A stretch of DNA of 64,000 bases from an uncultured cyanobacterium (GTDB lineage Bacteria > Cyanobacteriota > Cyanobacteriia > Cyanobacteriales > CAWCAG01). A model generated the notes under the pieces. It saw only the letters and a list, made by a program, of their open reading frames with translations. It was not told the origin of the DNA and ran no database searches. The stretch spans positions 672,001 to 736,000 of the forward strand of contig CAWDOD010000002.1 in NCBI GenBank assembly GCA_963803805.1, written 5' to 3'. Position 1 is the stretch's first letter, and each line of letters begins with the position of its first letter. Below are positions 3,682 to 49,000 of the stretch, in pieces. The position numbers were made by a program, and so were the translations under genes.

Positions 3682-6600
3682 TTGCTTATGAGCAGCAATC
3701 GAGCGGATATAATAAGGGCCAATATCCTTTTTGTTGACAATTCGTTGCCTGATTTGCAGAATCTGTCCGCAAGATTAATAGAGAAAGGGTATAAGCTCAA
3801 AGAATTTTTTCAGTCAAGTCAGGTAATCGCCGCTATCCATTCTGTGGCTCCTGCTCTAATTTTACTTAAAGCAGGAAAGCCTGGTTATCAAATTTGCCAG
3901 GAACTTAAAGCCGAAACAAACACTAGCAAAGTTCCTGTTATCTTTATTCTTGAAGCCGAGCAATTAAAAGAACGAGAAAAAATTTATAGTAGCGGTGCTA
4001 CGGACTATATCATTACTCCTTTTTTACCAGAAGAACTGTTTGGCCGCCTCGAAAAACAATTACCCTATCAAGAAAAAACCTTACAATATCGTGCGGCTAG
4101 GGATAGTTTACTTAGTAATATTTCTCAGCAATTTATTGACCAAGACTTAGATGTCGCTATTGATTTTGCTTTACAAGCTTTAGGGGAATTTTTAGCAGGG
4201 GATCGCGCCTATGTTTATCGCTATAAAGATGATGCTGATTATATAGATTTGACCCATGAATGGTGTAAAGATGGTATTGATTCTCTCAAGTCTCAATATC
4301 AAAGCGTTTGTGTTAGCGATTATTCTTGGTTGCATAGTAATCTTTTAGAGTTTAAAACTCTCCAAGTTCATAATGTTGCTGCCTTGCCTCCTGAAGCAGC
4401 CCCAGAAAAGGCAGAGTTTGAGAAAAACCAAGTCAAGTCTTTTGTAGAAGTTCCCATGAGTCACAAAGGGATAGTGGTGGGTTTTGTTGGGCTGGAGGTG
4501 ATTGGTGCTTCCCGAAAGTGGAGTAGCGAAGATATAGATTTATTTGAGCGTGTCGGCACTTTAATGGCGATCGCGCAAGCTAGGTATGAGGTTGAGAAAG
4601 CCCTACAAAAGAGTAACAAAAGATACGGCAATCTTGCTGCCAATGTCCCAGGCATGATTTTTCGCGCCAAACTGCTTCGTGATGGCTCTTGGAAATTTAT
4701 TTATGTTAGTTCTGCTTGTCGGGATATTTATGGAGTAGATCCAGAAAAAGCGATTGAAGATGCTAATTTAGTTCTCAGAACTATTTATCCTGATGATTTA
4801 GAAAGAGCCAACGAACTTACTGCTATATCTGCCAAAACTCTAGAACCAATGCACTGGGCAGGAAGAATTTTGGTAGGAGGTAGAACAAAATGGATTCAAT
4901 CAGACTCACGGCCAGAAAAACTGAAGAATGGTAGCATTGTTTGGGATGGTATATTAACAGAAATTACCCAACGTAAGCGAGTTGAAGTTGCTTTACGGGA
5001 AAGCCAAAAAAGATTAGCGGGTATTTTGGATAATGCCGAAGAAGCAATTATTTCGGTAGATGAAGAAAACAAGATCCTTCTTTTTAATCAAGGTGCAGAA
5101 AAGATTTTTGGTTATACAACAGAAGAAATCTTAGGTCACTCTTTAGATATTCTTCTCCCTAAAGCTATTCGGAGTATCCACTCTGAACATATCAATAACT
5201 TTGGTGATTCTCCTCAGCAAGCACGGAAAATGGCTGAACGTTCCGGGAAAGTTTTTGCTCTACGCAAAGATGGCTCCCAATTTCCTGCTGAAGCATCTAT
5301 TTCTAAGTTGCAATTACAAGACGGCAAAATTTTTACCGTCATGCTTAAAGATATTAGTGATCGCCTCAAAACAGAGAAAGCCCTCCGTCAAAGTGAGTTG
5401 AAGTTTCGTAGCATAGTAGAAAATGCTAGGGATATTATTTACTTACTGACCCTAGAAGGAGTATTTTCCTACGCTGCCCCTAATTGGACTGATATTTTAG
5501 GGCATGATGTAGATGAGGTGTTAGGAAAACATTTTGCTGACTTTGTTCATCCCGACGACTTAGAAAAATGCGCTACTTTTTATGCCCAACTCCTAGAAGC
5601 AACAGAAAAACTCGACGGTATTGAATATCGAGTTAAACATAAAAATGGTAGCTGGCGTTGGCATATATCTAACCTTTCAGCAGTAAGGGATGAAGAAGAT
5701 ACAGTACTATACTGCATCGGTATTGCCAGGGATATTAGCGATCGCAAGCAGTCTGAAGCCGAATTGCAACAAGCTAAAGAAGCAGCCGATGCTGCTAACC
5801 GGGCAAAAAGCGAGTTTTTGGCTAATATGAGCCATGAGTTGCGAACACCCCTCAATGCCATTTTAGGCTTTACTCAAGTGATGAACCGCGATCGCAACCT
5901 TACCAAAGAACAAAGGAATAATTTAGAAATTATCAACCGCAGTGGAGAGCATTTACTGTCCTTAATTAACGACGTGTTGGAGATGTCTAAAATTGAGGCA
6001 GGAAGGACAACTTTTAATCCTGGGAGTTTCGATCTCTATCGTTTGCTAGAAGATATTGAAGATATGTTGGAAAATAGAGCTACTAGCAAAGGTTTACAGC
6101 TTCTGTTTGAATTCGCTCCTAATTTACCCCAATATATCAAAACCGACGAGGGTAAATTACGTCAAGTACTCATTAATCTTCTTGGTAACGGTATTAAGTT
6201 TACTGAAGAAGGAGGAGTTTCTTTACGGGTTGGGGAAATTTCTCAAGGTAACAATAATGGTAACGGTAAAATCAGGCTGCGTTTTGAAGTTGAAGATACA
6301 GGCCCAGGTATATCTGCTAAGGAAAAGGAACAGCTTTTTCAAGCCTTTGGCCAAACCGAAACTGGTTGGAAATCTCAACAGGGTACAGGTTTAGGGCTGC
6401 CGATTAGTCGCAGGTTTGTCCAAATGATGGGAGGAGACATTCAAGTTAAGAGCCAATTAGATCATGGTTCAATTTTCACCTTTGATATCCAAGCTAGACG
6501 AGCTACGGCACAGGAAGTTGAACCTGCTGCCCCCAAACGTCAGATTGTTAGTTTAGCACCAGATCAACCTACTTATCGTATCTTAGTTGTAGAAGATCGC

Positions 6601-7236
6601 TGGGCCAATCGCCAACTTCTGTTGAAGTTGTTACTCTCTATCGGTTTTGAAGTTGAAGAAGCTAAGAATGGGCAAGAAGCGATTGAAATTTGGGAAAGTT
6701 GGGAACCTCACCTAATTTGGATGGATATGCGAATGCCAGTTATGAATGGCTATGAAGCATCAAAACGAATCAAAAGTACCACCAAAGGTCAAGCTACAGT
6801 TATTATTGCCCTAACAGCAAGCGCTTTTGAAGAAGACAGAAAGGCTGTTTTATCCATTGGTTGCGATGACTTTTTGCGTAAGCCATTTCGCGAAGAAGTA
6901 TTATTAGAAAAAATTGCTCAGCATTTGGGAGTACGCTATATCTATGCACAAGGAGAAAAAGAGTTTACCAATAGTGACAAATTAGGGGATGGTGAAGCTA
7001 ATTCACAAATAGAACAGTCTATTAGTACTTATCTATCACAAATGCCCCCAGAATGGACAATGCAACTAAAAGAAGCGGCAATTCAAGGTTTTGATGAGCA
7101 GATCCTGGAATTGATTGCAGCTATACCCCCAAACTATAGTTCCCTGTCTCAAGCTTTAGAAGATTACGCTCACAATTTTCGCTTTGATAAAGTAAGAGAC
7201 TTAATTCAACAGATTAATGAAGAACAACCAAGCTGA
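3682..7236 (+). CDS. Hybrid histidine kinase: degenerate REC - GAF - 3xPAS - HisKA/HATPase - REC
   Basis: H-box FLANMSHELRTPLN, N-box LRQVLINLLGNGIKFT, G-boxes DTGPGI/GTGLGL, C-terminal REC LIWMDMRMP; start may be ATG 3688. Confidence 0.93.
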   Translation: MLMSSNRADIIRANILFVDNSLPDLQNLSARLIEKGYKLKEFFQSSQVIAAIHSVAPALILLKAGKPGYQICQELKAETNTSKVPVIFILEAEQLKEREKIYSSGATDYIITPFLPEELFGRLEKQLPYQEKTLQYRAARDSLLSNISQQFIDQDLDVAIDFALQALGEFLAGDRAYVYRYKDDADYIDLTHEWCKDGIDSLKSQYQSVCVSDYSWLHSNLLEFKTLQVHNVAALPPEAAPEKAEFEKNQVKSFVEVPMSHKGIVVGFVGLEVIGASRKWSSEDIDLFERVGTLMAIAQARYEVEKALQKSNKRYGNLAANVPGMIFRAKLLRDGSWKFIYVSSACRDIYGVDPEKAIEDANLVLRTIYPDDLERANELTAISAKTLEPMHWAGRILVGGRTKWIQSDSRPEKLKNGSIVWDGILTEITQRKRVEVALRESQKRLAGILDNAEEAIISVDEENKILLFNQGAEKIFGYTTEEILGHSLDILLPKAIRSIHSEHINNFGDSPQQARKMAERSGKVFALRKDGSQFPAEASISKLQLQDGKIFTVMLKDISDRLKTEKALRQSELKFRSIVENARDIIYLLTLEGVFSYAAPNWTDILGHDVDEVLGKHFADFVHPDDLEKCATFYAQLLEATEKLDGIEYRVKHKNGSWRWHISNLSAVRDEEDTVLYCIGIARDISDRKQSEAELQQAKEAADAANRAKSEFLANMSHELRTPLNAILGFTQVMNRDRNLTKEQRNNLEIINRSGEHLLSLINDVLEMSKIEAGRTTFNPGSFDLYRLLEDIEDMLENRATSKGLQLLFEFAPNLPQYIKTDEGKLRQVLINLLGNGIKFTEEGGVSLRVGEISQGNNNGNGKIRLRFEVEDTGPGISAKEKEQLFQAFGQTETGWKSQQGTGLGLPISRRFVQMMGGDIQVKSQLDHGSIFTFDIQARRATAQEVEPAAPKRQIVSLAPDQPTYRILVVEDRWANRQLLLKLLLSIGFEVEEAKNGQEAIEIWESWEPHLIWMDMRMPVMNGYEASKRIKSTTKGQATVIIALTASAFEEDRKAVLSIGCDDFLRKPFREEVLLEKIAQHLGVRYIYAQGEKEFTNSDKLGDGEANSQIEQSISTYLSQMPPEWTMQLKEAAIQGFDEQILELIAAIPPNYSSLSQALEDYAHNFRFDKVRDLIQQINEEQPS

Positions 7237-8341
7237 TGCTTCACGAGGAGATATTCTTCTTGTTGATGATACCCCCAATAACCTCCGCCTCCTCTCAGTG
7301 ATGCTGAAAAAGCAGGGATATAAAGTCCGGAAAGCTTTAAATGGTCAGATGGCTTTAGATTCAGTAGCAGCTAATTTGCCTGACTTGATTTTACTAGATA
7401 TTAGTATGCCGGAGATGGATGGTTATGAAGTTTGTGAACGTCTTAAAACCCAGGAAGAGACTCGCGAAGTGCCAGTTATTTTTATTAGTGCTTTAGATAA
7501 TGTTTTTGATAAAGTCAAAGCTTTTGAAGTGGGGGGTATAGATTATATTACTAAGCCTTTCCAGGATGCAGAAGTATTTGCTAGGGTAGAAAATCAATTA
7601 CAAATTCAACAACTGCAATTTAGTCTCAAACAAAAAACTAAAGAATTAGAAAAGCAAAATATCTTACTGCAACAAGAAATTTGCGATCGCGAAAAAGTAG
7701 AGAATGCCCTACGTATAGAACAAAGGAAATCAGAAACTTTACTCCTCAACATTTTTCCAGCAGCTATTGCCCAAAAGTTAAAACAGGCACATCAATCTAT
7801 TGCTGAACAATACGAAGAAGTAACTATCCTTTTTGCTGATATTGTCGGTTTCACTCCTTTAGCAGCAAGTATTTCTCCTAAAGAAATAGTTGATATTCTT
7901 AACAAGATTTTTTCTGCTTTTGACCAACTAACTCTAAAGCATGGTTTAGAAAAAATCAAGACCATTGGTGATGCTTACATGGTGGTAGGAGGGCTGCCTA
8001 CACCAAAAAGCGATCATGCTGAGGCGATCGCCCAAATGGCTTTAGATATGCAAGCTTGTATTGGAGATTTTTCTAGGGAGAAAGGGGAACCTTTTCAAAT
8101 ACGTATTGGCATTAATACAGGCCCTGTTGTAGCAGGAGTAATTGGTAAAAACAAATTTATCTACGATTTATGGGGAGATGCGGTTAATGTTGCTTCTCGT
8201 ATGGAGTCTTCAGCAGAACCAGGTAAAATTCAAGTTTCTGCTCACAGTTATGAGTTATTAAAAGGGAAATATAACTTTGAAGAAAGAGGGAAGATTAAAG
8301 TGAAAGGTAAAGGGGAAATGATTAGTTATTGGCTAGTTTGA
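7217..8341 (+). CDS. Response regulator receiver - class III adenylate cyclase
   Basis: REC (DLILLDISMP, KPF) plus cyclase motifs LFADIVGFT, KIKTIGDAYM, YDLWGDAVNVASRMES (Lys/Asp specificity pair for ATP). Confidence 0.93.
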   Translation: MKNNQADASRGDILLVDDTPNNLRLLSVMLKKQGYKVRKALNGQMALDSVAANLPDLILLDISMPEMDGYEVCERLKTQEETREVPVIFISALDNVFDKVKAFEVGGIDYITKPFQDAEVFARVENQLQIQQLQFSLKQKTKELEKQNILLQQEICDREKVENALRIEQRKSETLLLNIFPAAIAQKLKQAHQSIAEQYEEVTILFADIVGFTPLAASISPKEIVDILNKIFSAFDQLTLKHGLEKIKTIGDAYMVVGGLPTPKSDHAEAIAQMALDMQACIGDFSREKGEPFQIRIGINTGPVVAGVIGKNKFIYDLWGDAVNVASRMESSAEPGKIQVSAHSYELLKGKYNFEERGKIKVKGKGEMISYWLV

Positions 8342-8412: not shown

Positions 8413-9018
8413 ATGTCTTTCAATAGATACAAAAATATCGGTCAGGTGTTGAAGGAATACAGTATTTTTGCCCAGGAAAAAGATTTTCTTCAAGAACAGC
8501 CAATGGTTATTCGAGAAATATTCAAAGAAGAATTAGCTTTTTCTTTGAGAGAGTTTGTGATAGGAGAATCAGAATATGCTGTTTGCGAAACAATTATTTT
8601 TCCTGTTCTAAGAGAAGTTTATAGAAGCTACCGAGATAAATTTACTCTTTGGAGTCATAAAACTATTACTTACAATGAACAGTTATCAGGTCAACCAGAC
8701 TATCTTTTAGCCAAGAGATCGCCGTTAGGTAAAGAAGTATTTGAGCAACCTTTCTTTGTCGCTGTAGAAGCAAAGAAAGATGATTTTATGCAAGGTTGGG
8801 GACAATGCTTAGCAGAAATGATTGCTATTCAAAAAATTAATAAATTACCAGAGGAACAAACTGTATTTGGTATTGTTTCCAATGGGCAAGTCTGGCAATT
8901 TGGGCAACTCACACAAGCCTGTTTCACCAAAAATATCCAAGTTTATATTATTCAAGAATTAGATAAACTCTTTGCTGCTATAAATTATATCTTTCAAGAG
9001 TGCGAACTACAGTTATAA
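8413..9018 (+). CDS. Hypothetical protein with PD-(D/E)XK / HsdR_N-like fold
   Basis: GQPDYLLA...FVAVEAKK...GWGQCLAEMIA...GIVSNGQVWQF pattern of a common cyanobacterial family. Confidence 0.7.
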   Translation: MSFNRYKNIGQVLKEYSIFAQEKDFLQEQPMVIREIFKEELAFSLREFVIGESEYAVCETIIFPVLREVYRSYRDKFTLWSHKTITYNEQLSGQPDYLLAKRSPLGKEVFEQPFFVAVEAKKDDFMQGWGQCLAEMIAIQKINKLPEEQTVFGIVSNGQVWQFGQLTQACFTKNIQVYIIQELDKLFAAINYIFQECELQL

Positions 9019-9090
9019 TCATTGAAAATAATTAACAATTCTACTTTATAGTTCATTAGCTTGGGCTATTTCCCTCTCCCTATCACCCTT

Positions 9091-9459
9091 CTAATTAAAC
9101 ATTGCTTTTTCTTCAATCTGAGCTTTAAGCTCAACTAAAAGGTAGTCAAGTTCAATTTGGGGGAGATTAAAATTTCCATTCAATATAGCATTGTAGGCAG
9201 CAATCTTTTCCCGTATTGAATAACCTTGACCCAAAATAATATCAACAAGCTCCCTTGTTAGGTTAGGCATTTTTGTTATCAACTCATCAATAGAAGCTAA
9301 AATAAGACACTTCTGTTGCTTTATTTGTTCTTGTTTAAAAGCCTCATCTTGGAACCATTGTCGGATAGTAAAAACACCAATATTAAGTTCAAAAGCAACT
9401 TGCTCTTGGGTTTGTCCGGCATTAAGTAAGGCCAGAGCTTGATAAAACTTGATTTCCAT
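9091..9459 (-). CDS. Hypothetical protein with N-terminal helix-turn-helix
   Basis: ALALLNAGQTQEQVAFELNIGVFTIRQW is an HTH pattern. Confidence 0.55.
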   Translation of the reverse strand: MEIKFYQALALLNAGQTQEQVAFELNIGVFTIRQWFQDEAFKQEQIKQQKCLILASIDELITKMPNLTRELVDIILGQGYSIREKIAAYNAILNGNFNLPQIELDYLLVELKAQIEEKAMFN

Positions 9460-9855
9460 AGGTTTGTACCAAAATGCTAGACTTCTTATAAATATAGATA
9501 AAGCAAAATTGAATGTTGAACAAGCGCCAAATCGCTTAAGGTAAATGGCTTACTGGAATAAGGACTCAGGCATTTAATTTATTTGTTAAGGGAGATACGG
9601 AATAAGGTAAGAAGGATGCGAAAACTATCGTACTCTTTGCCGATTTCCTAAATTAAATAATATTTAGCTTTGTCTACAAATTGGATAATGGACAAGCCGA
9701 TTTGCCTCTACTGAATTCTTCTATACTAAAAAAATAGTCAGCATCTATACTTGTAAATTAGCTAACAACCTTTAAAATTAACTATCAAATAAAATAGGGA
9801 CTATTGTTTCTACCCTGCAAGCTCGAAAAATATTACTCTTTAACAAAAAAATATT

Positions 9856-12496
9856 GTGTGGGAATATCTCAAAGTAATTTTCTCCCCTAGCCAGTATATG
9901 CCCCATGGCAACTGCTATTTATGGCAACCTTCTTTAGTTCTGCTCCACCTTGTTAGTGACTTACTAATTGCTGTTGCCTATTTCTCTATTCCACTGTTGC
10001 TAGTTTATTTTGTGTCCAAGCGGCAAGATGTTCCTTTTATGAGGATATTTTATCTGTTTGGTGCTTTTATCATTCTCTGTGGCGTTGGTCACTTATTGGA
10101 AGTTTGGACTCTTTGGCATCCTGCTTATTGGTTGTCAGGAGTAGAACAGGGAATGACAGCATTAGTTTCTTGTTATACTGCTCTTAGAATGGTAACTTTG
10201 TTGCCTCAATTTCTTTCTTTGAAAACCCCTCAAGAATTAGCAGCAATTAATCGAGAATTAGCAAAGCAGATTGAAATTAGTGAGGCAGCGAGAAAAGAAC
10301 AACAAAAAGCTGAACAAATTTTAAAAAATGTTGTGGAAGGAACGGCTTCAGCTACAGGAGAAGAGTTCTTTTTAGCTTTAGTAGAAAATTTGGCTAAAGC
10401 TTTGGATATTCGCTATGCTTTTGTAGCTCAAGTAATTAGCACTGAAGCAGAGAGGTTAGAGAGTCTTGCTTTTTGGGCGGAAAAGGAAATGGGAGAAAAT
10501 TTTGAATATAGCCTCGCTGGTACTCCCTGTGAACCGATTTTTCGCTCCGGCAAACCTTGCTACTACCCTCAAGGTGTGCAAGAACTTTTTCCTCAAGCAA
10601 CAGGGTTAAAAGCTATGGGGGCAGAGAGTTACTTAGGAGTACCTTTGTTGGATGGCAACAAAGAGGTTATTGGCACTCTGTGCATTAATAACAATGCTCC
10701 CTTGAAAAATCCTAAAACCGCCGAAGCGATTATGCTCATATTCGCTGCTAGAGCAGCAGCAGAATTGCAACGTCAAGCAGCAGAGTCGGCTTTGCGTCAA
10801 GCTTATGACGAGTTGGAGACGAGGGTACAAGAGCGTACTGAAGATTTAGTGACAGCTAATAATTTCCTCGCCAAAGAAATTGAAGAAAGAACTATTGCTG
10901 AATCTGCTTTAAAAAAAGTAGAAAGCCGCTTGAAAAGACAGCAAGCAGGATTAGTGGAATTAGCTACCAGCGAACATTTATATGCAGGAGAGATTAATAC
11001 GGCGATCGCCCAAATAACTCAATTAGCTAGTCGTATTCTAGATGTGGAAAGGAGTAGTGTTTGGTTTTTCAATAAAGATCAAGCAGCCATTATTTGTGCT
11101 GATCTCTATGAAAAATCTCCCCATCATCACAGTGAAGGTCAAAAAATAGCCTTAGCTGATTGCCCAAACTATTTTCAAGCTTTGGAACAAGAGCGAATAA
11201 TTGCTGCCCCTGACGTTTATACAGACTCGCGATTAATAGATTTTCAGGAATTTTATTTTAAGCCCCTAAATATTGTCTCCATGCTCGATGTAGCTATTTA
11301 TCTTAAAGGTGAAAAAATAGGGGTTGTTTGCTTAGAACATACGGGGGTAGCAGAAAGAAATTGGACCGTTGGAGAACAGAATTTTGTTAGTTACTTAGCT
11401 TACATGAGCGCTTTAGCCGTAGAATCTCACTATCGCAAACAAGCAGAAGAAGCCCTGCAACAAAAAAATCAGGAACTGATCACTACCCTAAAACAGCTTA
11501 AAACAACTCAAGATGAGCTTGTACAGTCGGAGAAAATGGCTGCTCTTGGCCAGCTTATAGCGGGGGTAGCCCATGAGATTAATACCCCTTTAGGAGCCAT
11601 TCGCGCTTCTTCTAGCAATACAGCTACTGCCTTAGAAGAAGCTTTAGAACGAGATACCCCAATTATCTCAAAAACTTTCTGCCGAAGAGCAAACCATTTT
11701 CTTTACCTTAGTTGATTGTGCTTGGCACAGGCATTCTCAAACAAGTTCCAAGGAAAAACGTCAGTTGAAGCGAACTTTAACTAAACAACTCCAATCACAG
11801 CAGATTGATGAACCTAGGCGTGTTGCCGATACTTTAATAGATATGGACGTTTGGGAAGATATTGACCGCTTTTTACCCCTTCTTAAAGCACCTGAAGTAG
11901 ATTGGACTCTTGAGTTAGCCTATAATTTAGTTCGCTTACAGAGCAACTCTCGCAATATTATTACGGCTGTAGAAAGAGCTTCTAAGGTGGTTTTTGCTCT
12001 CAAAAGCTATGCCCGTTACGATAAAAGCGACCAGAAAAGACTAGTTAAAATTACTGATAGTATTGAGACGGTTTTGGAGTTGTACTACAACCAAATCAAG
12101 CGAGGTGTTGAAGTAATTCAACAATACGATGCTCAATCTCTGCCCTCTATCTGGTGTTACCCCGATGAGTTAGTGCAGGTTTGGACAAACTTAATTCACA
12201 ATGGGATTCAAGCTATGGAAGGTCAAGGTGAGTTAACAATTAGTGTGGTGGAGCAAGCAGAAGATATTGTTGTCAAAGTTACAGATTCTGGTGGCGGTAT
12301 CTCCCCAGAAATACAAGAGCGCATCTTTGAACCCTTTTTCACAACTAAACCCATTGGAGAAGGAAGTGGTTTAGGATTAGATATTGTACGTAAAATTGTT
12401 GATAAGCACAAAGGGCGTATCGAGGTTGATAGTCAGCCTGGAGAAACGACTTTTAGCGTTTTCCTACCCAGACAACAACTGATAACTGAGCATTGA
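9856..12496 (+). CDS. Ethylene-receptor-like sensor histidine kinase (ETR1-type TM domain - 2xGAF - HisKA/HATPase), split by one frameshift near 11650
   Basis: SDLLIAVAYFSIP and FGAFIILCGVGH match the ETR1 ethylene-binding domain; H-box GVAHEINTPLG in ORF 9856-11715; removing one base near 11650 joins it via EIPQLSQKLSAEEQTIFF to ORF 11765-12496 (QVWTNLIHN, GEGSGLGL). Confidence 0.88.
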
Positions 12497-12502
12497 TAAC
12501 TA

Positions 12503-12922
12503 ATGACAGATACCGTAATTTTGTGTGTTGATGATGATGAAGTTGTTCTCGAAAGTATTAAAGAGCAACTGAAAAGGAAATTTGGCAGCAAATACCTTTA
12601 TGAGGTTGCTGATAGCGCAGAGGAGGGGTGGGAAGTTATTGAAGAATTGAGTCAGGAAAACTTGAGAATTGTGATTGTGGTTTCTGACTGGTTGATGCCG
12701 GAAATGAAAGGTGATGAATTTCTGATTAAGGTACATCAGAAATTTCCCAACGTTACTAATATAATGTTAACTGGTCAAGCTGATGAGTCAGCTATTGAAC
12801 GAGCTAAAAAAGATGCTAATCTGTTTTGTTGTTTGTCTAAACCTTGGAGTGAAGCAGAATTAACCGATGTACTGACCTCAGCATTAAAGAAGAATGAGCC
12901 ACCTAGCGATCCTATGCGTTGA
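12503..12922 (+). CDS. Single-domain response regulator
   Basis: ILCVDDD, VVSDWLMPEMKG, MLTGQA, KPW. Confidence 0.92.
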   Translation: MTDTVILCVDDDEVVLESIKEQLKRKFGSKYLYEVADSAEEGWEVIEELSQENLRIVIVVSDWLMPEMKGDEFLIKVHQKFPNVTNIMLTGQADESAIERAKKDANLFCCLSKPWSEAELTDVLTSALKKNEPPSDPMR

Positions 12923-14102
12923 TGACCAAAAAGTTATTTTAGACAGTCTCAAAGAACAGCTAAAGCGTAATTTGAAAGGAATTTATGAGTTGGAAATAGC
13001 AGAAAGCGCAGAAGAAGCTTTAGAAATTCTTGAGGAGTTAACAGAAGAGAGGGTTGAAGTTGCTCTGATTATTTCTGACCAAATTATGCCAGGAATGAAA
13101 GGTGATGAATTACTTATTAAAGTTCATCAACTCTATCCGCAAATTATAAAAATTATGTTAACGGGGCAAGCTGATGCTAGAGCAGTGGGAAATGTGGTTA
13201 ATAAGGCGAATTTATATCGTTATTTAGATAAGCCTTGGGAAGAAACTGACCTGATCTTAACAGTTAAAGAGGCCCTACGCAGTTACAGACAAAATCAACA
13301 GTTGGTAGAACAAAATAAAGAATTACAAAAGCTTAATAGTCAACTTCAACAGCTTAATAACTCCTTAGAAGAAAAAATTGCTGAACGTACCCAAGAATTA
13401 AGCAATGCTAATCTTAAATTAGAACGAAAAATTGCCGAACGCAAAATGGCAGAAACCGCCTTGCGTCTAGCTAGGCAAAGATCTGATAATTTGATTCTTA
13501 ATATTTTGCCTGCTAGTGTAGCGGAAAAGTTAAAGCAGGGTCAGAGTATTATTGCTGAACAATTTGATGAAGCAACTATTCTTTTTGCGGATTTGGTAGA
13601 TTTTACTCGCATAGCCGCTTTTGTTAAGCCTATTGAATTAGTCAATTTGCTTAATCAAATTTTTTCTGAGTTTGATGAACTAGCTGATCAGTATGGTGTA
13701 GAAAAAATCAAGACTATCGGCGATGAATATATGGTAGTAGCAGGAGTGCCAATTCCTCAAGAAAATGGTGCAGAAGCGATGGCCCAAATGGCTTTGGCTA
13801 TGGCTAAGGTGGTTAATAACTATCCGGGTTTGGATAATTTACCTTTAAAAATTCGCATAGGTATAAATACTGGCAAAGTGATAGCAGGAGTAATCGGGCT
13901 AAGAAGATTTAGCTATGATCTTTGGGGAGATGCTGTTAATATTGCTTCTCGTATGGAGTCATCAGGAATTGCTGGTAAAATTCAAGTAACTGTATCTACT
14001 TACCAGAAGTTGAAAGATAATTATATCTTGGAACCGAGGGGAAAAATTGCTATTAAGGGTAAAGGAAATATGATGACCTATTGGCTAGTTGGCAAGAAAT
14101 GA
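12894..14102 (+). CDS. Response regulator receiver - coiled coil - class III adenylate cyclase
   Basis: REC (IISDQIMPG, KPW) plus LFADLVDFT, KIKTIGDEYM, YDLWGDAVNIASRMES. Confidence 0.93.
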   Translation: MSHLAILCVDDQKVILDSLKEQLKRNLKGIYELEIAESAEEALEILEELTEERVEVALIISDQIMPGMKGDELLIKVHQLYPQIIKIMLTGQADARAVGNVVNKANLYRYLDKPWEETDLILTVKEALRSYRQNQQLVEQNKELQKLNSQLQQLNNSLEEKIAERTQELSNANLKLERKIAERKMAETALRLARQRSDNLILNILPASVAEKLKQGQSIIAEQFDEATILFADLVDFTRIAAFVKPIELVNLLNQIFSEFDELADQYGVEKIKTIGDEYMVVAGVPIPQENGAEAMAQMALAMAKVVNNYPGLDNLPLKIRIGINTGKVIAGVIGLRRFSYDLWGDAVNIASRMESSGIAGKIQVTVSTYQKLKDNYILEPRGKIAIKGKGNMMTYWLVGKK

Positions 14103-14191
14103 GATTTGCTAATAGCTAAACTATGGTGTAATCCTATGTCGGCTTTAGCCAAGATAAAAGTAAAACTGTTTATTCTTAATTAAATAGAATT

Positions 14192-14593
14192 ATGCACAAA
14201 AAAACCATTCTTTGTGTTGATGATGAGCGTATCATTTTAACTAGTTTGCGCGATCAACTTACTAATCATTTTGGCAAGCGTTATGAATATGAATTTGCTG
14301 AAAGTGTCGAAGAAGCTTTAGAAGTGATTGAAGAGTTGAATGAAGATGGTGGCGAAATCTTGATGATTGTTTCTGATTGGCTGATGCCGGAGATGAAAGG
14401 AGATGAATTTTTGATTAAAGTTCATCAACGTTTTCCGGAAATTGTTAAAGTACTTCTTACAGGGCAAGCTGATGATGAAGCGATTGAGAGAACAAAACAA
14501 CTAGCTAACCTTCATCGTTATTTACCCAAGCCTTGGGATGAAACTACTTTAATAGATGTTTTAGAGTCAGGGTTAGAGCAAAAAAATGAGTAA
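14192..14593 (+). CDS. Single-domain response regulator
   Basis: ILCVDDE, IVSDWLMPEMKG, LLTGQA, KPW; paralog of 12503-12922. Confidence 0.92.
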   Translation: MHKKTILCVDDERIILTSLRDQLTNHFGKRYEYEFAESVEEALEVIEELNEDGGEILMIVSDWLMPEMKGDEFLIKVHQRFPEIVKVLLTGQADDEAIERTKQLANLHRYLPKPWDETTLIDVLESGLEQKNE

Positions 14594-16064
14594 ACCGGTT
14601 ATTATTTGTGTTGATGATGAAAGAATTGTTTTAGTAAGTTTGCGAGATCAGCTTACTCAACATTTAGGTAACGAATATGAAATAGAATTAGCCGAAAGTG
14701 GTGAGGAAGCTTTAGAGATTTTTGCAGAGTTAGCTGAAGAGGAAGTTGAAGTTCCTTTAATTATTTCTGACCAAATTATGCCGGGGATGAAAGGGGATGA
14801 TTTATTGGTAGTAATTCAGAATCAACATCCCCAAACTTTGAAAATAATGCTAACAGGACAAGCTAGTGCTGAAGCTGTGGGCAAGGCAGTTAACCAAGCT
14901 AATCTCTATCGCTATATTACTAAACCTTGGCAAGCGGAAGATTTGAAATTAACGGTTAAAGAGGCTCTTAATAGTTATCAACAAGAGAAAAGATTGGCGG
15001 AGTATAGTCGTAATCTAGAAGTGAAAGTAGAAGAACGTACTATCGAATTACAACAAAAAAATGAAGAGTTAGCTCAAGCTCTACGGCAGTTACAATCTAC
15101 CCAACAAGAACTTATTCAATCAGAGAAAATGGCGGCTCTTGGTCAACTTATTGCTGGGGTAGCACACGAAATCAATACTCCTTTGGGAGCGATTAAGGCT
15201 TCTATTAGTAATATTGCCAACGCTTTAGAGAAATCATTACAACAACTACCTCAATTGTTAACTCAGCTTTCTGAACAAGAACAGGCAGATTTTTTTGCCT
15301 TAGTTGCAGCTAGTCAAAATAATACTGAACCCCTTTCCTTTCGTACAGAGCGTAAGTTAAAGCGTGCTTATAGACAAGAGTTGGAAGCTCAAAATATTGA
15401 GGATGCTGATACTGTAGCAGCTAATTTAGTCAAGATTGGGTTTAAATACGAACTTGCTCCCTTTTTACCTTTATTAAAATCTCCCTATAAATCTGCGATA
15501 TTGCACACTACCTATAATTTGGCTATGCAGCAAAGTAATAGTGAAAATATTAAATTAGCAGTAGATAGAGCCTCTAAAATTGTTTTTGCATTGAAAAGTT
15601 ATGCCCGCCAAGGACAGACTGGAGAAAAAATCAGAACTCAGGTGATAGAAGGAATTGACTTAGTACTAACTATTTATCACAATCAACTTAAACGAGGAGT
15701 AGATGTAACCAAAAATTATCAGGATATCCCCCCTGTCCTTTGTTATCCAGAAGAATTGAATCAGGTTTGGACTAATTTAATTCATAATGCTATTCAAGCT
15801 ATGAATAATAAAGGCAGATTAGCCATAACTGCTATTGAAGATAATGGTTATGTAGTTGTGCAAATAACTGATTCTGGTTGTGGGATACCTCCTCAAATCA
15901 AAGAAAATATCTTTAAGCCCTTTTTTACCACCAAATCTGCTGGAGAAGGTAGTGGTTTAGGATTGGATATTGTTAGTAAGATTATTGATAAGCACCAAGG
16001 CAAAATTGCAGTAGAAAGTAAGCCGGGATGTACTACATTTAAGGTTTGGTTGCCGATTAGCTGA
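14586..16064 (+). CDS. REC - histidine kinase (hybrid)
   Basis: N-terminal REC, SEKMAALGQLIAGVAHEINTPLG, QVWTNLIHNAIQAM, GEGSGLGL. Confidence 0.93.
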   Translation: MSKPVIICVDDERIVLVSLRDQLTQHLGNEYEIELAESGEEALEIFAELAEEEVEVPLIISDQIMPGMKGDDLLVVIQNQHPQTLKIMLTGQASAEAVGKAVNQANLYRYITKPWQAEDLKLTVKEALNSYQQEKRLAEYSRNLEVKVEERTIELQQKNEELAQALRQLQSTQQELIQSEKMAALGQLIAGVAHEINTPLGAIKASISNIANALEKSLQQLPQLLTQLSEQEQADFFALVAASQNNTEPLSFRTERKLKRAYRQELEAQNIEDADTVAANLVKIGFKYELAPFLPLLKSPYKSAILHTTYNLAMQQSNSENIKLAVDRASKIVFALKSYARQGQTGEKIRTQVIEGIDLVLTIYHNQLKRGVDVTKNYQDIPPVLCYPEELNQVWTNLIHNAIQAMNNKGRLAITAIEDNGYVVVQITDSGCGIPPQIKENIFKPFFTTKSAGEGSGLGLDIVSKIIDKHQGKIAVESKPGCTTFKVWLPIS

Positions 16065-44239: not shown

Positions 44240-44278
44240 AAACAGTGGGAAGTTGGTTGATTTTCCCACTGTTTTTTT
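44240..44278 (+). terminator. Intrinsic terminator after clpC
   Basis: AAACAGTGGGAA...TTCCCACTGTTT stem followed by a T-run. Confidence 0.75.
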
Positions 44279-44322
44279 ATGAATCTTTTCGGGTTAATGT
44301 TAATAATTACGAGGCTAAACTT

Positions 44323-44616
44323 ATGACTCCAAACCTTAAAGCTGCGATCGCAGCCATTAAACCACTTTCACCTGTAGAGCGTCAGCAACTGCTACAAATT
44401 CTTAACCAGGATATTCCAAATCCTGACTACCAAGCTGATTTGGTAAACCTCAGTAGCCAATTTTGGCAAGGTGTTACTTTAAAGCAATTATGCACTAATC
44501 AAACACCCAAGACCATTTTTAATATCAAAGATTTAGCTGCTGATTTTTGGATAGAAGAGGATTCCATAGAAGATTTTCTGGTTTTTCTTCGACAACAACG
44601 ACAAGAAGCCATTTAG
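44323..44616 (+). CDS. Small hypothetical protein (possibly antitoxin-like)
   Basis: MTPNLKAAIAAIKPLSPVERQQLLQIL...DFW.EEDSIEDFL.FLRQQR; ATG 44323 with GAGG upstream. Confidence 0.6.
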   Translation: MTPNLKAAIAAIKPLSPVERQQLLQILNQDIPNPDYQADLVNLSSQFWQGVTLKQLCTNQTPKTIFNIKDLAADFWIEEDSIEDFLVFLRQQRQEAI

Positions 44617-44657: not shown

Positions 44658-44972
44658 ATGACAGCAGTCATTTCAGAACATATTGACATTACCCCAGGCG
44701 TATGTGGTGGTAAACCACGTATTGCTGGACATCGGATTAGAGTACAAGATATTGCTATTTGGCACGAACAGATGGGAATGTCTCCTGATGAAATTGTCTC
44801 GCGCCATCCTAGTATTACTTTGGCAGATGTCTACGCCGCCTTAGCTTATTACCATGACCATTTTGAAGAGATTAGAACAGCCATTCGAGAAAGTGAGACT
44901 TTTGTGCAGAAGTTGCAAGAAACTATTCCTTCTAAAGTACAGCAGAAGTTAAGAGGCACAATAGTCCCTTGA
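44658..44972 (+). CDS. DUF433 family putative antitoxin
   Basis: HIDITPGVCGGKPRIAGHRIRVQDI...GMSPDEI...TLADVYAALAYYHDH. Confidence 0.9.
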   Translation: MTAVISEHIDITPGVCGGKPRIAGHRIRVQDIAIWHEQMGMSPDEIVSRHPSITLADVYAALAYYHDHFEEIRTAIRESETFVQKLQETIPSKVQQKLRGTIVP

Positions 44973-45059: not shown

Positions 45060-45470
45060 ATGAGAGATAAATTTCACAATGCTGTAAAACACGGACTAGA
45101 AAAGGATGGCTGGACAATTACTGATGATCCTCTGAGGATTAGGTCTGGCCGAGTTGATATGCAAATAGATTTAGGGGCTGAGAGATTACTGGCAGCAACA
45201 AAAGGAAACGAAAAAATTGCTGTTGAGATAAAAAGCTTTACCAATCCATCTAATATTTCTGAGTTCCATACGGCTCTGGGACAATTTTTAAATTACCAAG
45301 TTGCTTTAGAAGAGCGTAACTCAGAATTTAACTTGTTCCTAGCAGTACCGATTGGCACATTCAGAACTTTCTTTAGCTTGCCATTTGTGCAAACGGTAGT
45401 TAAGCGTTTCCAACTTAGTCTCTTGGTTTATGACCCATCCGAAGAGGTGATTTTAGAATGGAAAAAGTAA
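45060..45470 (+). CDS. xisH: XisH family protein
   Basis: DKFHNAVK..LEKDGWTITDDP...IDLGAE...KIAVEIKSF...FHTALGQFLNY. Confidence 0.92.
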   Translation: MRDKFHNAVKHGLEKDGWTITDDPLRIRSGRVDMQIDLGAERLLAATKGNEKIAVEIKSFTNPSNISEFHTALGQFLNYQVALEERNSEFNLFLAVPIGTFRTFFSLPFVQTVVKRFQLSLLVYDPSEEVILEWKK

Positions 45471-45793
45471 TCCAATATCGCCAATATATTAAACAACTTT
45501 TGAGGGATTATGCCAGTAAAAGTCCATCTGATCAAGATGTGGAAACTGCATTAATCTTTGACTCAGATCATGACCATTATCAAGTTGTTTACACAGGCTG
45601 GAAGAATCGCCAACCAATGTATGGTTGTGTTCTACACTTCAGCATCAAAAATGCCAAAATTTGGATACATCATGATGGCACTGAAATTGGTTTTGCTAAC
45701 GAATTTGTTAAGTTGGGAGTACCGAAGAGCGATATTGTACTAGCATTTCAAGAACCTGCTATGCGACAATACACTGATTTTGCAGTGGGCTAG
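45458..45793 (+). CDS. xisI: XisI family protein
   Basis: YRQYIKQLL...IFD..HDHYQ....GW...YGCVLH..IKN.KIWIHHDGTE.G.A.E....GVPKSDIVLAF. Confidence 0.92.
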   Translation: MEKVIQYRQYIKQLLRDYASKSPSDQDVETALIFDSDHDHYQVVYTGWKNRQPMYGCVLHFSIKNAKIWIHHDGTEIGFANEFVKLGVPKSDIVLAFQEPAMRQYTDFAVG

Positions 45794-45894: not shown

Positions 45895-46104
45895 ATCTCT
45901 GTTGCGGAACGATTCATTTGCCATACAGTATAACTAATACTTATTACTTAGCCATTCATTCCTGTTACGGAGCCATTCATTTGACTTACTATATAATTCA
46001 TTCTTATTACGCAATGATTCATTCATAATACGGAATGATTTATTTGACTTACGGAACGATTTATTTGACTTAATGTATAATCAAATCTTATTACATAACT
46101 AATT
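45895..46104. repeat. Tandem array of ten degenerate 21-bp units
   Basis: Period 21 without indels, consensus about ATTYKWxTTACGGAAyGATTC, e.g. ATTTGACTTACGGAACGATTT, ATTCCTGTTACGGAGCCATTC, ATTCTTATTACGCAATGATTC. Confidence 0.85.
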
Positions 46105-48108
46105 ATTTTTCTTACTGAACCATCTTTTCACTAAAGACAATAGCCTATCTCTCCAATTCTCTACTTTCCCCATCCTCCTCAGAAGGGAAGCCAAATTATT
46201 CCGAGTAGCCACCGTATTGGGATGATTTTTACCTAAGACCTTTTCACATAACTCTAAAGCCTGTAGTAAAAAAGGTTCAGCCTCTTCGTACCTCCCTTGG
46301 TCATAGTAGAGTACTGCCAGGTTGTTAACACTGGTTGCTACATGAGGGTGTTCTTCTCCCAAGAGTTTTATTCTTAGGTATAAGGCTTGTTGATACAAAG
46401 GTTCAGCCTCCTCGTACTTCCCTTGGTCATTGTAGAGTAATGCCAGGTTATTGACACTGCTTGCCACATGAGGATGGTCATCTTCCAGAAGTCTTCTTAA
46501 GGCTTGTTGATACAAAGATTCAGCCTCCTCGTACCTCCCTTGGTTATCGTAGAGTAATGCCAGGTTGTTGAGACTGGATGCTACATCAGGGTGGTCATTT
46601 CCTAGGAGTTTCTTTCTTAGGTCTAAAGCTTGTAGATACAAAGGTTCAGCCTCCTCGTACCTCCCTTGGTTATCGTAGAGTAATGCCAGGTTGTTGAGAC
46701 TGGTTGCTACATAAGGGTGGTCATTTCCTAAGCGTGCTTTGGTTTTTTCTAAGCATTGTTTTCTATGGGGTAGTGCCTGTTGATAAATACCTTGCCCTTC
46801 GTAAAAACGAGCCATACCCACAAAAGGCCAAATTAAATCTTCATCCTCGACAAATTCAGTCCAACTTGCTAAAACCTCTCCTAAATGGGGAATTGCCCCC
46901 GTAAACTTGGCTACATCTTCTAGGGTTGTTGTCTCAGGTATCTCCTTCGCTACAGCCACCATCACCTTACAGAAACTCTCCTTCAACCTCGCACAACCCT
47001 CCAACTCCCCTAACTTCTCCCGCAAAAACTCATGAATCAAAGAATGAAGTTCATAACTCCCTTTACCCTTCCTTTGCAACAAACTAGCTTCCAACAAAAC
47101 CTCATCCCGGATATCTTCCAACTCCTCCTTATCCTCATTCGGTAAACAACTCTCCACCAAACCCCAAGCAAAAGGCGCAACAGCAAACACACTCAACAAA
47201 CAAGCCACCTCCTGGGCAGACTCATTTAACTCCTGCCAACTCAACTCAAAGGCTGCCCTCACTCCCCTTTTTGCCGTCATATCTCCTGGGATTTTCGTCA
47301 ATGCCCTCTGGCTTAACTTCTTCTGTTGCAAACGCTGTTGCATCTCCCCCAAAGATAAATCCTGCTTCCCCTTGAGATAACGCCCCACCAACTCTATCCC
47401 TAAAGGCAAATATCCCAACCACTCACAGATTCTTTTAGCTGTTTCCCTTTCCCTATCTATCCTTTCTTCTACCTCTACCAAAAACTCCAACAACTCCAAA
47501 GCCGCAGCTTCTGTTAATACCTGCAACTCCAAATTGGTAAAGCCTGCGGTTAAACCCTGTTGCCTGGTGGTGACTAAAACCTTAAATCGATTTTCTGTGG
47601 GTAAATAGGGACGGAGGTTTTTGAAGTTAATTACATCGTCCAAAATTAATAAAACTTCCCCAGGAAACCAATTATCCCAGCAATATTGCACCTGGGTGGT
47701 TAAATCCACATCCTTGGGAATGTTTAACTTTCGGTAAGTTAACCCTAATTCAATAATCTGTGCTGGTAAGTCCTTATCCCTGACATCTAACCAACAAATA
47801 CCCCCAGGATAGGTATTCTCTTCCCGATATTGATAGGCATATTGAATAGCTAATTCCGTTTTGCCAATACCCCCCATCCCCGTAACGGCAGTGATGGCAA
47901 CCTTTTCCTTTTCCTGTAATTCTTGGTGTAGGGTTTTTAATTCTTCTTTTCTACCGACAAACTTAGCAGTAGGGAAAGGAATAGAGAAAGGAGGTTTACT
48001 TTCCTTTTCGGGGTAATTATATTGATGAATTTCCTGCTTGATGTTGCTATTAACCGCCTTACCAACACCAGTAAAGTTTTTGATCTCGTCCCCTTGATTT
48101 TCTGCCAT
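46099..48108 (-). CDS. NLR-like STAND protein: short N-terminal motif - NB-ARC ATPase - 42-aa TPR repeats
   Basis: FVGR..EL, Walker A GMGGIGKT, Walker B LLILDDV, LVTTR, GYLPLGI, YELHSLI; kinesin-light-chain-type TPRs HPxVAxSxNNLAxLYxxQGxYEEAE. Confidence 0.92.
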   Translation of the reverse strand: MAENQGDEIKNFTGVGKAVNSNIKQEIHQYNYPEKESKPPFSIPFPTAKFVGRKEELKTLHQELQEKEKVAITAVTGMGGIGKTELAIQYAYQYREENTYPGGICWLDVRDKDLPAQIIELGLTYRKLNIPKDVDLTTQVQYCWDNWFPGEVLLILDDVINFKNLRPYLPTENRFKVLVTTRQQGLTAGFTNLELQVLTEAAALELLEFLVEVEERIDRERETAKRICEWLGYLPLGIELVGRYLKGKQDLSLGEMQQRLQQKKLSQRALTKIPGDMTAKRGVRAAFELSWQELNESAQEVACLLSVFAVAPFAWGLVESCLPNEDKEELEDIRDEVLLEASLLQRKGKGSYELHSLIHEFLREKLGELEGCARLKESFCKVMVAVAKEIPETTTLEDVAKFTGAIPHLGEVLASWTEFVEDEDLIWPFVGMARFYEGQGIYQQALPHRKQCLEKTKARLGNDHPYVATSLNNLALLYDNQGRYEEAEPLYLQALDLRKKLLGNDHPDVASSLNNLALLYDNQGRYEEAESLYQQALRRLLEDDHPHVASSVNNLALLYNDQGKYEEAEPLYQQALYLRIKLLGEEHPHVATSVNNLAVLYYDQGRYEEAEPFLLQALELCEKVLGKNHPNTVATRNNLASLLRRMGKVENWRDRLLSLVKRWFSKKNN

Positions 48109-48192
48109 TGGCTTTAGATGATTAAGTAATGGTTTTTCCTACACCCCAATGGTTTCAATCCACTTATTCTAACCTTGAAAAAATCAACCATT

Positions 48193-48494
48193 TGTAGGGG
48201 CGACCCGTTGATATCAACCTGGCTACTGACAAATCAATTACATTGGGTCGCCTGCACCACCAATAATTACTGGTCAGGGCGACCCATTATATTGAGGGGT
48301 GGGTGACTAAAACAAGGAAAGCGGGTCGCCCCTACATATCACTAATTTTTTGATTTTTACCTTGACATTCAAGACAATCATGGTGGGCAAAGAAATCAGT
48401 TTTGATTTACACCCAATCGTTTGATATTAATTTGCCTACCCTACCAAGAACTTTAAATTCTTGTTCCCCCAGAATTGGGGGTTAGGGGGCAAAA
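48193..48494. repeat. Cluster of REP-like palindromic repeats
   Basis: TGTAGGGGCGACCCG (48193-207) / CGGGTCGCCCCTACA (48322-36) with inner partial copies at 48244-54 and 48275-86; GGTGGGCAAA / TTTGCCTACCCTAC (48382-48444); TTCCCCCAGAATTGGGGGTTAGGGGGC (within 48461-94). Confidence 0.8.
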
Positions 48495-48503
48495 CGATCA
48501 AAT

Positions 48504-48932
48504 TTATTCTACCTGTTTAACTTCCTCAGCCTCCGAAGCAGGCAACCCAGGTAATTCAATCTCAAACTTATCTGATAACTCTAAAACATTATTAGTAAAA
48601 TCCGTTGCCGTCGCCACCGCACCACTAAGGGGCATCGAAACTGCTAAAAGTGCTGCCAAACCAGCCTTGAGCTTAAAACGCTTCTTCTTCTCATCAGGAT
48701 TATTCACCTGTTGTTGTAAATCTTCTAAATGACTTTCTGCTTCTTCCCTTTGTTCGTCAGGAAAACTCTTAGCTAAATTAGATAACGAATCAATTAAGCG
48801 AATAATCTCAGCTAAATCCTGTTTCTCATTCTTATTGATGTTGTTTAAATTCTGAGTAACTGTCCCCCCTGAAACTTTACCAATACCGACAAAGTCCTGA
48901 ATTGTATCCCCAGAAGAATTTTTGTTAACCAT
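48504..48932 (-). CDS. Small protein: N-terminal motif shared with the adjacent NLR, plus a helical domain with a hydrophobic segment (candidate effector)
   Basis: ATG 48932 preceded by AGAGGA; GDTIQDFVGIGKVSGGTVTQNLNN then helices and LKAGLAALLAVSMPLSGAVATA. Confidence 0.75.
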   Translation of the reverse strand: MVNKNSSGDTIQDFVGIGKVSGGTVTQNLNNINKNEKQDLAEIIRLIDSLSNLAKSFPDEQREEAESHLEDLQQQVNNPDEKKKRFKLKAGLAALLAVSMPLSGAVATATDFTNNVLELSDKFEIELPGLPASEAEEVKQVE

Positions 48933-49000
48933 AACTATCCTCTTTACTTGCGATCGCACTGGTTAAATTCATTCTAAAACTTTTAAGAAGCGGGTTTTTC

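Follow-up and report, generated by a model that had tools for sequence, protein, structure and literature searches.

A short N-terminal tag shared by an effector-less NLR and a neighbouring four-helix-bundle protein: a candidate cyanobacterial sensor/executioner pair

Amyloid-type signalling from a receptor to an executioner protein occurs in fungi, in animals (RHIM) and, as recognised recently, in bacteria. In the fungal NWD2/HET-S and NLR/HeLo pairs the N-terminal motif of the NOD-like receptor (NLR) templates the motif of its partner, and the folding frees a hydrophobic helix into the membrane. The present locus is a candidate for signalling of this general kind. It lies in a 64,000-nucleotide stretch of DNA from an uncultured cyanobacterium (GenBank assembly GCA_963803805.1, contig CAWDOD010000002.1, positions 672,001 to 736,000 of the forward strand), called the window below, and all coordinates count from its first letter unless another sequence is named. 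The locus consists of an NLR gene of the signal transduction ATPase with numerous domains (STAND) type, which lacks an effector domain, and of a small upstream gene; the two proteins share a short N-terminal tag, and the small one ends in a four-helix bundle (4HB). The fungal pairs differ from it in that their partner motif is C-terminal to the HeLo domain, which belongs to another kingdom and has no sequence kinship or specific fold kinship with the 4HB.

Described amyloid signalling motifs are located at NLR N-termini or effector C-termini (PMC12261475), and the N-terminal position on the partner side, pointed out in an earlier note made from the letters of the window alone, does depart from this published layout. 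The Bell/NLR pairs with the bacterial amyloid signalling sequences BASS1-10 (Dyrka et al., bioRxiv 10.1101/2020.01.06.895854) have in common with the window an effector-less NB-ARC/TPR receptor, a collinear and adjacent small helical partner, a cyanobacterial host, and a motif of about 25 residues that is rich in G/N/Q and hydrophobic residues and is carried by both proteins, in the NLR at its N-terminus. The partner motif is C-terminal in those pairs, whereas it occupies residues 8-31 in the window. The Bell domain is set apart from the 4HB by its description, as its hydrophobic helix comes first and that of the 4HB third of four. The BASS pairs also usually abut or overlap, 57% of the collinear Bell/NLR pairs being at most 10 bp apart, while the genes in the window are separated by 395 bp. 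The BASS screen compared Bell C-termini with NLR N-termini only, and because of this restriction the layout of the window was beyond its reach. The window tag differs from BASS1-11 in its position and its partner domain, and it may differ from them in sequence as well.

The Bab/Agp abortive-infection pair of Escherichia coli (BASS11; Ibarlosa et al., bioRxiv 10.1101/2024.11.07.622273) is the only bacterial pair of this kind known to act against phage. Here too a neighbouring sensor switches on a small helical membrane-targeting protein by way of a short amyloid motif that both carry. Bab carries its motif C-terminally and its hydrophobic helix N-terminally, the reverse of the N-terminal motif and third-placed helix of the window partner. 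Further afield, the conflict proteins built from leucine-rich repeats (LRR), Roc and COR (LRR-Roc-COR, AP-GTPases) share with the locus the 4HB as a C-terminal module in effector position, but their sensor is a Roc-COR GTPase and that of the window a STAND ATPase, and the 4HB is not among the effector domains named in the available part of PMC8195603. The general kind of system, an amyloid-signalling defence pair, is already known, and what is new is the partner domain, the layout and possibly the tag.

The shared tag and the two proteins

BLASTP of the two proteins aligned residues 6-36 of the NLR with residues 8-38 of the small protein without gaps (11/31 identical, 18/31 positive, E 7e-5). 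The remaining segments had E values of 1.1 or higher, and no significant similarity was found beyond the tag. Both results bear out the earlier note, which had matched residues 6-29 with 8-31 and had stated that the proteins share nothing else; its open reading frames (ORFs) and coordinates also proved correct. The core expression GDx[IVL]xx[FYW]xG[IVL]GK occurred at two sites only in all six frames of the entire 5.3-Mb genome, and these are the two tags. A motif profile was built from six instances, namely the two tags of the window, those of three proteins closely related to the small one and that of one NLR relative. In 401 genomes of the class the profile scored the window tags with E 4e-21 and 1e-17 and gave no other significant match, the next best having E 0.028. 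The shared tag is real and beyond chance. Such a profile search had been suggested in the earlier note; among these genomes the motif was seen neither in unrelated proteins nor in further pairs of an NLR with a small gene. No paper turned up for the motif strings in the literature searched, and the alignment of the small protein had no related loci among the genome contigs or metagenome contigs searched.

The codons of the tag core are about 65% identical between the two genes (24/37 bases, counted by hand) and include synonymous differences, which argues that the match is old and has been preserved at the peptide level. The closest relative of the NLR, P0007, is 79% identical overall; it agrees with the window NLR at 15/17 of the N-terminal residues 1-17 but at only 4/15 of residues 18-32 (counted by hand). 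Residues 18-32 of P0007 are nearer to the tag of the small protein than those of the window NLR are. As to composition, the NLR side is fairly charged (three K and two E in 26 residues); on the partner side Q/N/G/V/I make up 65% and K/P/L 8%.

Only 53 residues precede the NB-ARC domain of the NLR (the earlier note had said about 45), and none of them matches an effector family in Pfam; the protein is therefore an NLR without an effector domain, as had been claimed. None of the other nine NB-ARC ORFs among the ten of the genome has fewer than 60 residues at this place (they have 96-506), and in none of them does the N-terminus resemble a neighbouring ORF, as it does here (E 2.6e-5). Alignment of the NLR against the contigs of species-representative genomes found one 35%-identical relative and one unrelated TPR match, and that against metagenome contigs found no related loci. 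The 35%-identical relative (locus L074, 2981-6877, from a cyanobacterial metagenome-assembled genome) is an all-in-one Trypsin_2, NB-ARC and TPR protein with a Trypco1 gene just upstream. Its Trypsin_2 domain occupies the position where the window NLR carries the tag alone.

The part coding for the TPR sensor includes a tandem array at 46271-46730 with a period of 126 bp, 3.8 copies and 84% matches. P0007 is 148 residues longer than the window NLR (817 vs 669 aa), and the length of its TPR array differs, as is typical of the repeat-number variation of NLR sensor arrays.

For the small gene, an alternative GTG start at 48959 would lengthen the protein by nine residues; the relatives P0002-P0005 begin at the position equivalent to the ATG. 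The AlphaFold2 models, made first with nine and then with 47 aligned relatives, had the same outcome. Residues 1-31, with the tag, were predicted to be disordered (pLDDT, the predicted local distance difference test score, <50). Residues 34-122 form an up-down four-helix bundle with helices at 34-54, 59-77, 81-102 and 107-122 (pLDDT 76-91), in agreement with the helical domain and hydrophobic helix that had been read from the sequence beforehand. Helix 3 is membrane-like in hydrophobicity, its best 19-residue Kyte-Doolittle mean being 1.66. Across 150 family members the median of this value is 1.79, 81% reach at least 1.6, and the helix has on average 0.3 charged residues. Complex prediction for two copies of NLR residues 1-48 with two copies of partner residues 1-40 gave a score of 0.02, which counts neither way.

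Table 1. Positions of the features of the locus in the window, with the evidence for each
Feature	Coordinates	Strand	Evidence or remark
NLR-type STAND gene, 669 aa: N-terminal tag, NB-ARC, TPR array	46099..48108	-	ORF; Pfam NB-ARC E 5.6e-19, TPR_12 E 1.4e-66
NLR-side motif, residues 6-29 (GDEIKNFTGVGK...)	48022..48093	-	BLASTP E 7e-5, genome-unique regular expression, profile E 1e-17
NB-ARC domain, residues 54-266	47311..47949	-	Pfam PF00931; genome search C2:719311-719949 is the same place
TPR sensor repeats, residues ~431-632	46213..46818	-	Pfam TPR families
Small partner gene, 142 aa: N-terminal tag and C-terminal 4HB	48504..48932 (from ATG)	-	ORF; relatives 84-92% identical
Partner-side motif, residues 8-31 (GDTIQDFVGIGK...)	48840..48911	-	BLASTP, regular expression, profile; conserved in P0002-P0005; pLDDT <50
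4HB domain, residues 34-122	48567..48833	-	AlphaFold2; 347 representative relatives at E <= 1e-3
Hydrophobic helix 3, residues 81-102, candidate membrane-inserting segment (LKAGLAALLAVS...)	48627..48692	-	Kyte-Doolittle
Repeat-bearing stretch, 218 bp, in the intergenic spacer	48157..48374	.	Four GGGCGACCC/GGGTCGCCC inverted-repeat copies
Upstream gene, PD-(D/E)xK/HSDR_N-like, 216 aa	49001..49651	-	Pfam HSDR_N E 1.9e-5, 25.0 bits vs cut-off 25.1; PADLOC PD_DExK E 5.5e-5

The four-helix bundle family and its contexts

No Pfam or NCBIfam model matched the 4HB, and its profile found nothing below E 0.39 among the PDB sequences. In a search of 1.84 billion cluster representatives the same profile collected 347 at E <= 1e-3, 232 of them at E <= 1e-10, and it matched in 70 of the 401 class genomes. 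Judged from these sequences, the 4HB is a real domain family that has so far gone unannotated.

Candidates for a known fold or family found no support. The best Foldseek match against the PDB (E 0.11) led to generic four-helix bundles only. A match to YicC in the wide VIA-align search (best Z 12.4) was within the range common for helical bundles, and no function was drawn from it. TCAD2 (PF19971) had a cosine of 0.90 in the protein atlas but no hmmscan match at E <= 10 in nine family members; neither 151 class genomes nor the control genomes yielded a member of the TCAD2 family.

The domain is a C-terminal one: in 144 of the 150 relatives listed, no more than 30 residues separate its end from the C-terminus, and in all 150 no more than 60. 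Of the listed relatives, 81 exceed 260 aa; 43 of these are pentapeptide-repeat proteins, 16 carry LRR/Roc/COR, three are AbiTii fusions and one is a winged-helix (wHTH) protein, and the remaining 18 had no Pfam family. Full LRR-Roc-COR-4HB proteins of 918-1026 aa were present in three genomes. According to Kaur et al. (eLife 2021, PMC8195603), bacterial LRR-AP-GTPase-COR proteins have their effector position at the C-terminus, where at least 24 domains, TIR, caspase and trypsin among them, occur; since the 4HB is C-terminal in Roc-COR proteins, it occupies the place of an effector.

The small protein also matched the C-terminal part of the PADLOC model PDC-M14B (E 1.4e-7, model positions 159-269 of 275). 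A complete PDC-M14A and B pair was detected in another cyanobacterium (E 3e-51 and 1.7e-49), and its B protein ends in a 4HB, which corresponds to the C-terminal about 100 residues of PDC-M14B. As the window protein lacks the N-terminal about 160 residues of PDC-M14B, and as no PDC-M14A match was found among the window neighbours scanned, it shares the domain with PDC-M14 and not the system. PDC-M14 was not mentioned in the literature searched. The pair of the other cyanobacterium (locus L023 of genome G021, 6218-7604) consists of a zinc-ribbon-like PDC-M14A of 151 aa and a PDC-M14B of 315 aa, the 4HB being the C-terminal part of the latter.

Taken from such contexts (the Roc-COR C-terminus, the AbiTii fusion and PDC-M14B), the 4HB behaves like an effector module in other proteins. 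The family links NLR, Roc-COR GTPase, pentapeptide-repeat, AbiTii and PADLOC-candidate contexts, and for several cyanobacterial conflict systems that are still orphans it offers a concrete candidate effector.

Throughout the family, the 40 residues ahead of the 4HB are richer than the sequence further upstream in G (9.7% vs 5.1%), N (12.7% vs 6.7%), Q and T, and poorer in L (4.2% vs 12.0%). This composition partly matches the bias that Dyrka et al. report for BASS motifs.

A second shared tag was found at loci where Roc-COR and 4HB are encoded separately. The comparison included 20 loci with short 4HB ORFs and three further loci; 22 ORFs had a 4HB, and 20 of them had a sufficiently long stretch ahead of the domain for comparison with neighbouring ORFs. 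In 8/20 loci this stretch matched the extreme C-terminal end of the upstream ORF (E 1.4e-7 to 1e-3). The shared element was 'HQxGxGDNxxGDxVxGxK' in six of the eight loci, the N/Q-rich segment itself in L055, and a different motif, on a 117-aa ORF, in L063. Four of the motif-bearing upstream ORFs were LRR-Roc-COR proteins or fragments by Pfam (the ORFs of L022 and L064 were outside the scan), and in L060 the motif-bearing ORF, of 272 aa and without a family, lies downstream of a Roc-COR ORF. The usual operon (L061, L060, L064, L062 and L022) runs from an LRR-Roc-COR gene ending in 'HQxGxGDN..GDK' through DUF6883 (111 aa) to a protein with DUF4926, the motif, the N/Q segment and the 4HB, and its genes abut or overlap. 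The fused Roc-COR-4HB proteins keep the N/Q/G-rich stretch and lack the 'HQxGxGDN' motif. The motif is therefore present where the covalent link between Roc-COR and 4HB is missing, as expected of a coupling tag. A common family of the window tag and the 'HQxGxGDN' tag was rejected, as the hhalign probability was 0.3% and only SGDxI aligned.

Some minor features of these loci were also seen. DUF6883 and DUF4926 resemble a small two-gene cassette placed between sensor and effector. In L021 (G033, 5760-6470), which is the same sequence as L006 1492-2202, the DUF4926-like and 4HB ORFs are in frame with a single stop codon between them, and other genomes have a single fused DUF4926-motif-4HB protein in their place; a pseudogene, read-through or a sequencing error could explain the split. 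In L056 (G339, 8899-12658) the Roc-COR gene upstream of DUF4926-4HB is broken by a 341-aa ORF with a second copy at 14098-15120, which looks like an insertion sequence.

The proposed coupling and its alternatives

The reading preferred here is that the NLR and the small protein form a two-gene sensor/executioner pair coupled by the shared tag, for which the case for and the case against are about evenly balanced. By precedent from STAND proteins and NLRs, the NLR would bind a trigger with its TPR array and oligomerise by means of its NB-ARC domain. The clustered NLR tags, about 30 residues long, rich in G/N/Q/V/I and disordered, would then pass into an ordered beta-rich assembly, which would recruit and probably template the tag of the partner as in amyloid-type signalling. 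The juxtaposed or destabilised 4HBs would open and release helix 3 into the membrane, and the cell would die or be arrested (abortive infection). Binding, templating, membrane attack and the defence role are what we infer from the layout. Amyloid-like templating as the means of coupling is argued by analogy, composition and predicted disorder, and is put forward only tentatively.

Several observations weigh against the coupled pair. The genes are adjacent and co-oriented, yet 395 bp apart. Neither NB-ARC nor NACHT was found in any of the 81 listed long 4HB proteins or in the large neighbours of other 4HB loci (0/30 scanned, of 70 ORFs of at least 300 aa within 5 kb). The tag is confined to one lineage, as judged from the 401 class genomes and the genome and metagenome contigs. 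Its second half has drifted in the window NLR (AVNSNIKQEIHQ vs VSGGTVTQNLNN) and has three Lys. At the six Roc-COR/4HB motif pairs, the within-pair identity of 71 did not exceed the shuffled mean of 72.5, and 95% of 720 permutations reached 71. A further point comes from an 847-nt contig of a sediment metagenome, a relative of about 90% identity, in which the codons of the NLR motif and the 218-bp stretch of the spacer are without alignment at >= 80%. Parts of both genes, 3' for the small gene and 5' for the NLR gene, lie on this contig with a gap of 277 nt where the window has 328 nt, and their adjacency is therefore kept in one relative; the metagenome and the source genome go back to one study, so that the contig is not independent evidence. 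As for the signalling pair proposed in the earlier note, the effector-less NLR, the unique tag at the same position in both proteins and the effector-like 4HB have held, whereas the spacing of the genes and the lack of an NLR beside the other 4HB loci examined speak against it.

Coupling might also proceed without amyloid. The tag would then be a short docking element (by beta-strand augmentation or in a small hetero-oligomer) by which the oligomerised NLR recruits the 4HB protein in a stoichiometric manner, on the adaptor principle of the effector-associated domains (EADs). All the context evidence fits docking equally well, and homotypic EAD coupling of core NTPases to separate effectors has been described (Kaur et al. 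2020, PMC7159879). The charged NLR-side tag and the N/Q/G-rich stretch kept in the fused Roc-COR-4HB proteins, where templating in trans is unneeded, point the same way. The EADs, however, are small globular, mostly helical domains present in many copies per genome, whereas the tag has some 25-30 residues, is predicted to be disordered and occurs twice in the genome; the composition of the partner side, moreover, is similar to the bias published for motifs of amyloid signalling. Docking is for these reasons considered unlikely, with some real chance left to it.

A tag without any functional coupling, left over from a local duplication or recombination long ago in which, for example, the NLR gene captured the 5' end of its neighbour, would agree with the spacing of the genes, the restriction of the motif to a lineage, the absence of an NLR beside the other 4HB loci examined and the low identity of the window NLR and P0007 in the second half of the tag. 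The spacer had no more terminator-like hairpins than shuffled sequences, and their counts give no clue to co-transcription. A relic is less easily reconciled with the first 17 residues of the NLR, which are 15/17 identical to P0007 against 79% overall, or with the synonymous differences that mark an old match preserved at the peptide level. An effector-less NLR, besides, needs a partner, and the sharing of terminal motifs recurs independently at the Roc-COR/4HB loci. This explanation is accordingly regarded as quite improbable.

That the 4HB protein is a membrane anchor or a regulator (inhibitor or guard), tethering or restraining the NLR through the tag while the output lies elsewhere, for example in the PD-(D/E)xK-like gene, is very improbable: a C-terminal membrane anchor is plausible in the pentapeptide-repeat proteins, the commonest 4HB partners, the fold is generic and has no specific match, and the nuclease-like gene is close by and co-oriented, but the 4HB takes the Roc-COR slot used by TIR, caspase and trypsin effectors (PMC8195603) and is attached to AbiTii and PDC-M14B as well, and the nuclease-like protein has no tag and a Pfam match below the cut-off.

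If the coupled pair is combined with the Roc-COR loci, a wider proposal can be made, which is speculative. An undescribed cyanobacterial executioner module may consist of an N/Q/G-rich beta-prone segment and a C-terminal 4HB with a releasable membrane helix, driven either in cis (Roc-COR, pentapeptide-repeat and AbiTii fusions) or in trans via self-templating tags (the N-terminal tags of the NLR pair and the C-terminal tag of Roc-COR). If true, amyloid-type signalling would gain a new effector class, a reversed topology and Roc-COR (LRRK2/DAPK-like) sensors, and the amyloid principle would work with an N-terminal executioner tag and a different helical membrane domain.

Spacer and neighbouring genes

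The repeat-bearing 218-bp stretch of the spacer has three partial and diverged copies elsewhere in the genome (71-79% over 84-144 nt) and is probably an inserted element or small mobile repeat.

Upstream, at a distance of 69 bp from the small gene, comes the co-oriented PD-(D/E)xK-like gene, and it is uncertain whether it belongs to the NLR/4HB system. The gene names behind the defence neighbourhood of the earlier note hold: DUF433, XisH and XisI are clear, and HSDR_N is borderline.

Three unrelated loci have a XisH/XisI pair directly beside the 4HB gene or the NLR that goes with it, namely one in the window (45060-45793), L019 (G056) and L021 (G033); besides the window, one has a fused Roc-COR-4HB gene and one a split Roc-COR/4HB operon. 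XisHI beside 4HB loci may be a defence-island companion, or it may be due to chance given how common XisHI is in cyanobacteria. The DUF433 gene (44658-44972) follows a 123-aa ORF without a Pfam family (44245-44616), and the two are possibly a toxin-antitoxin-like pair.

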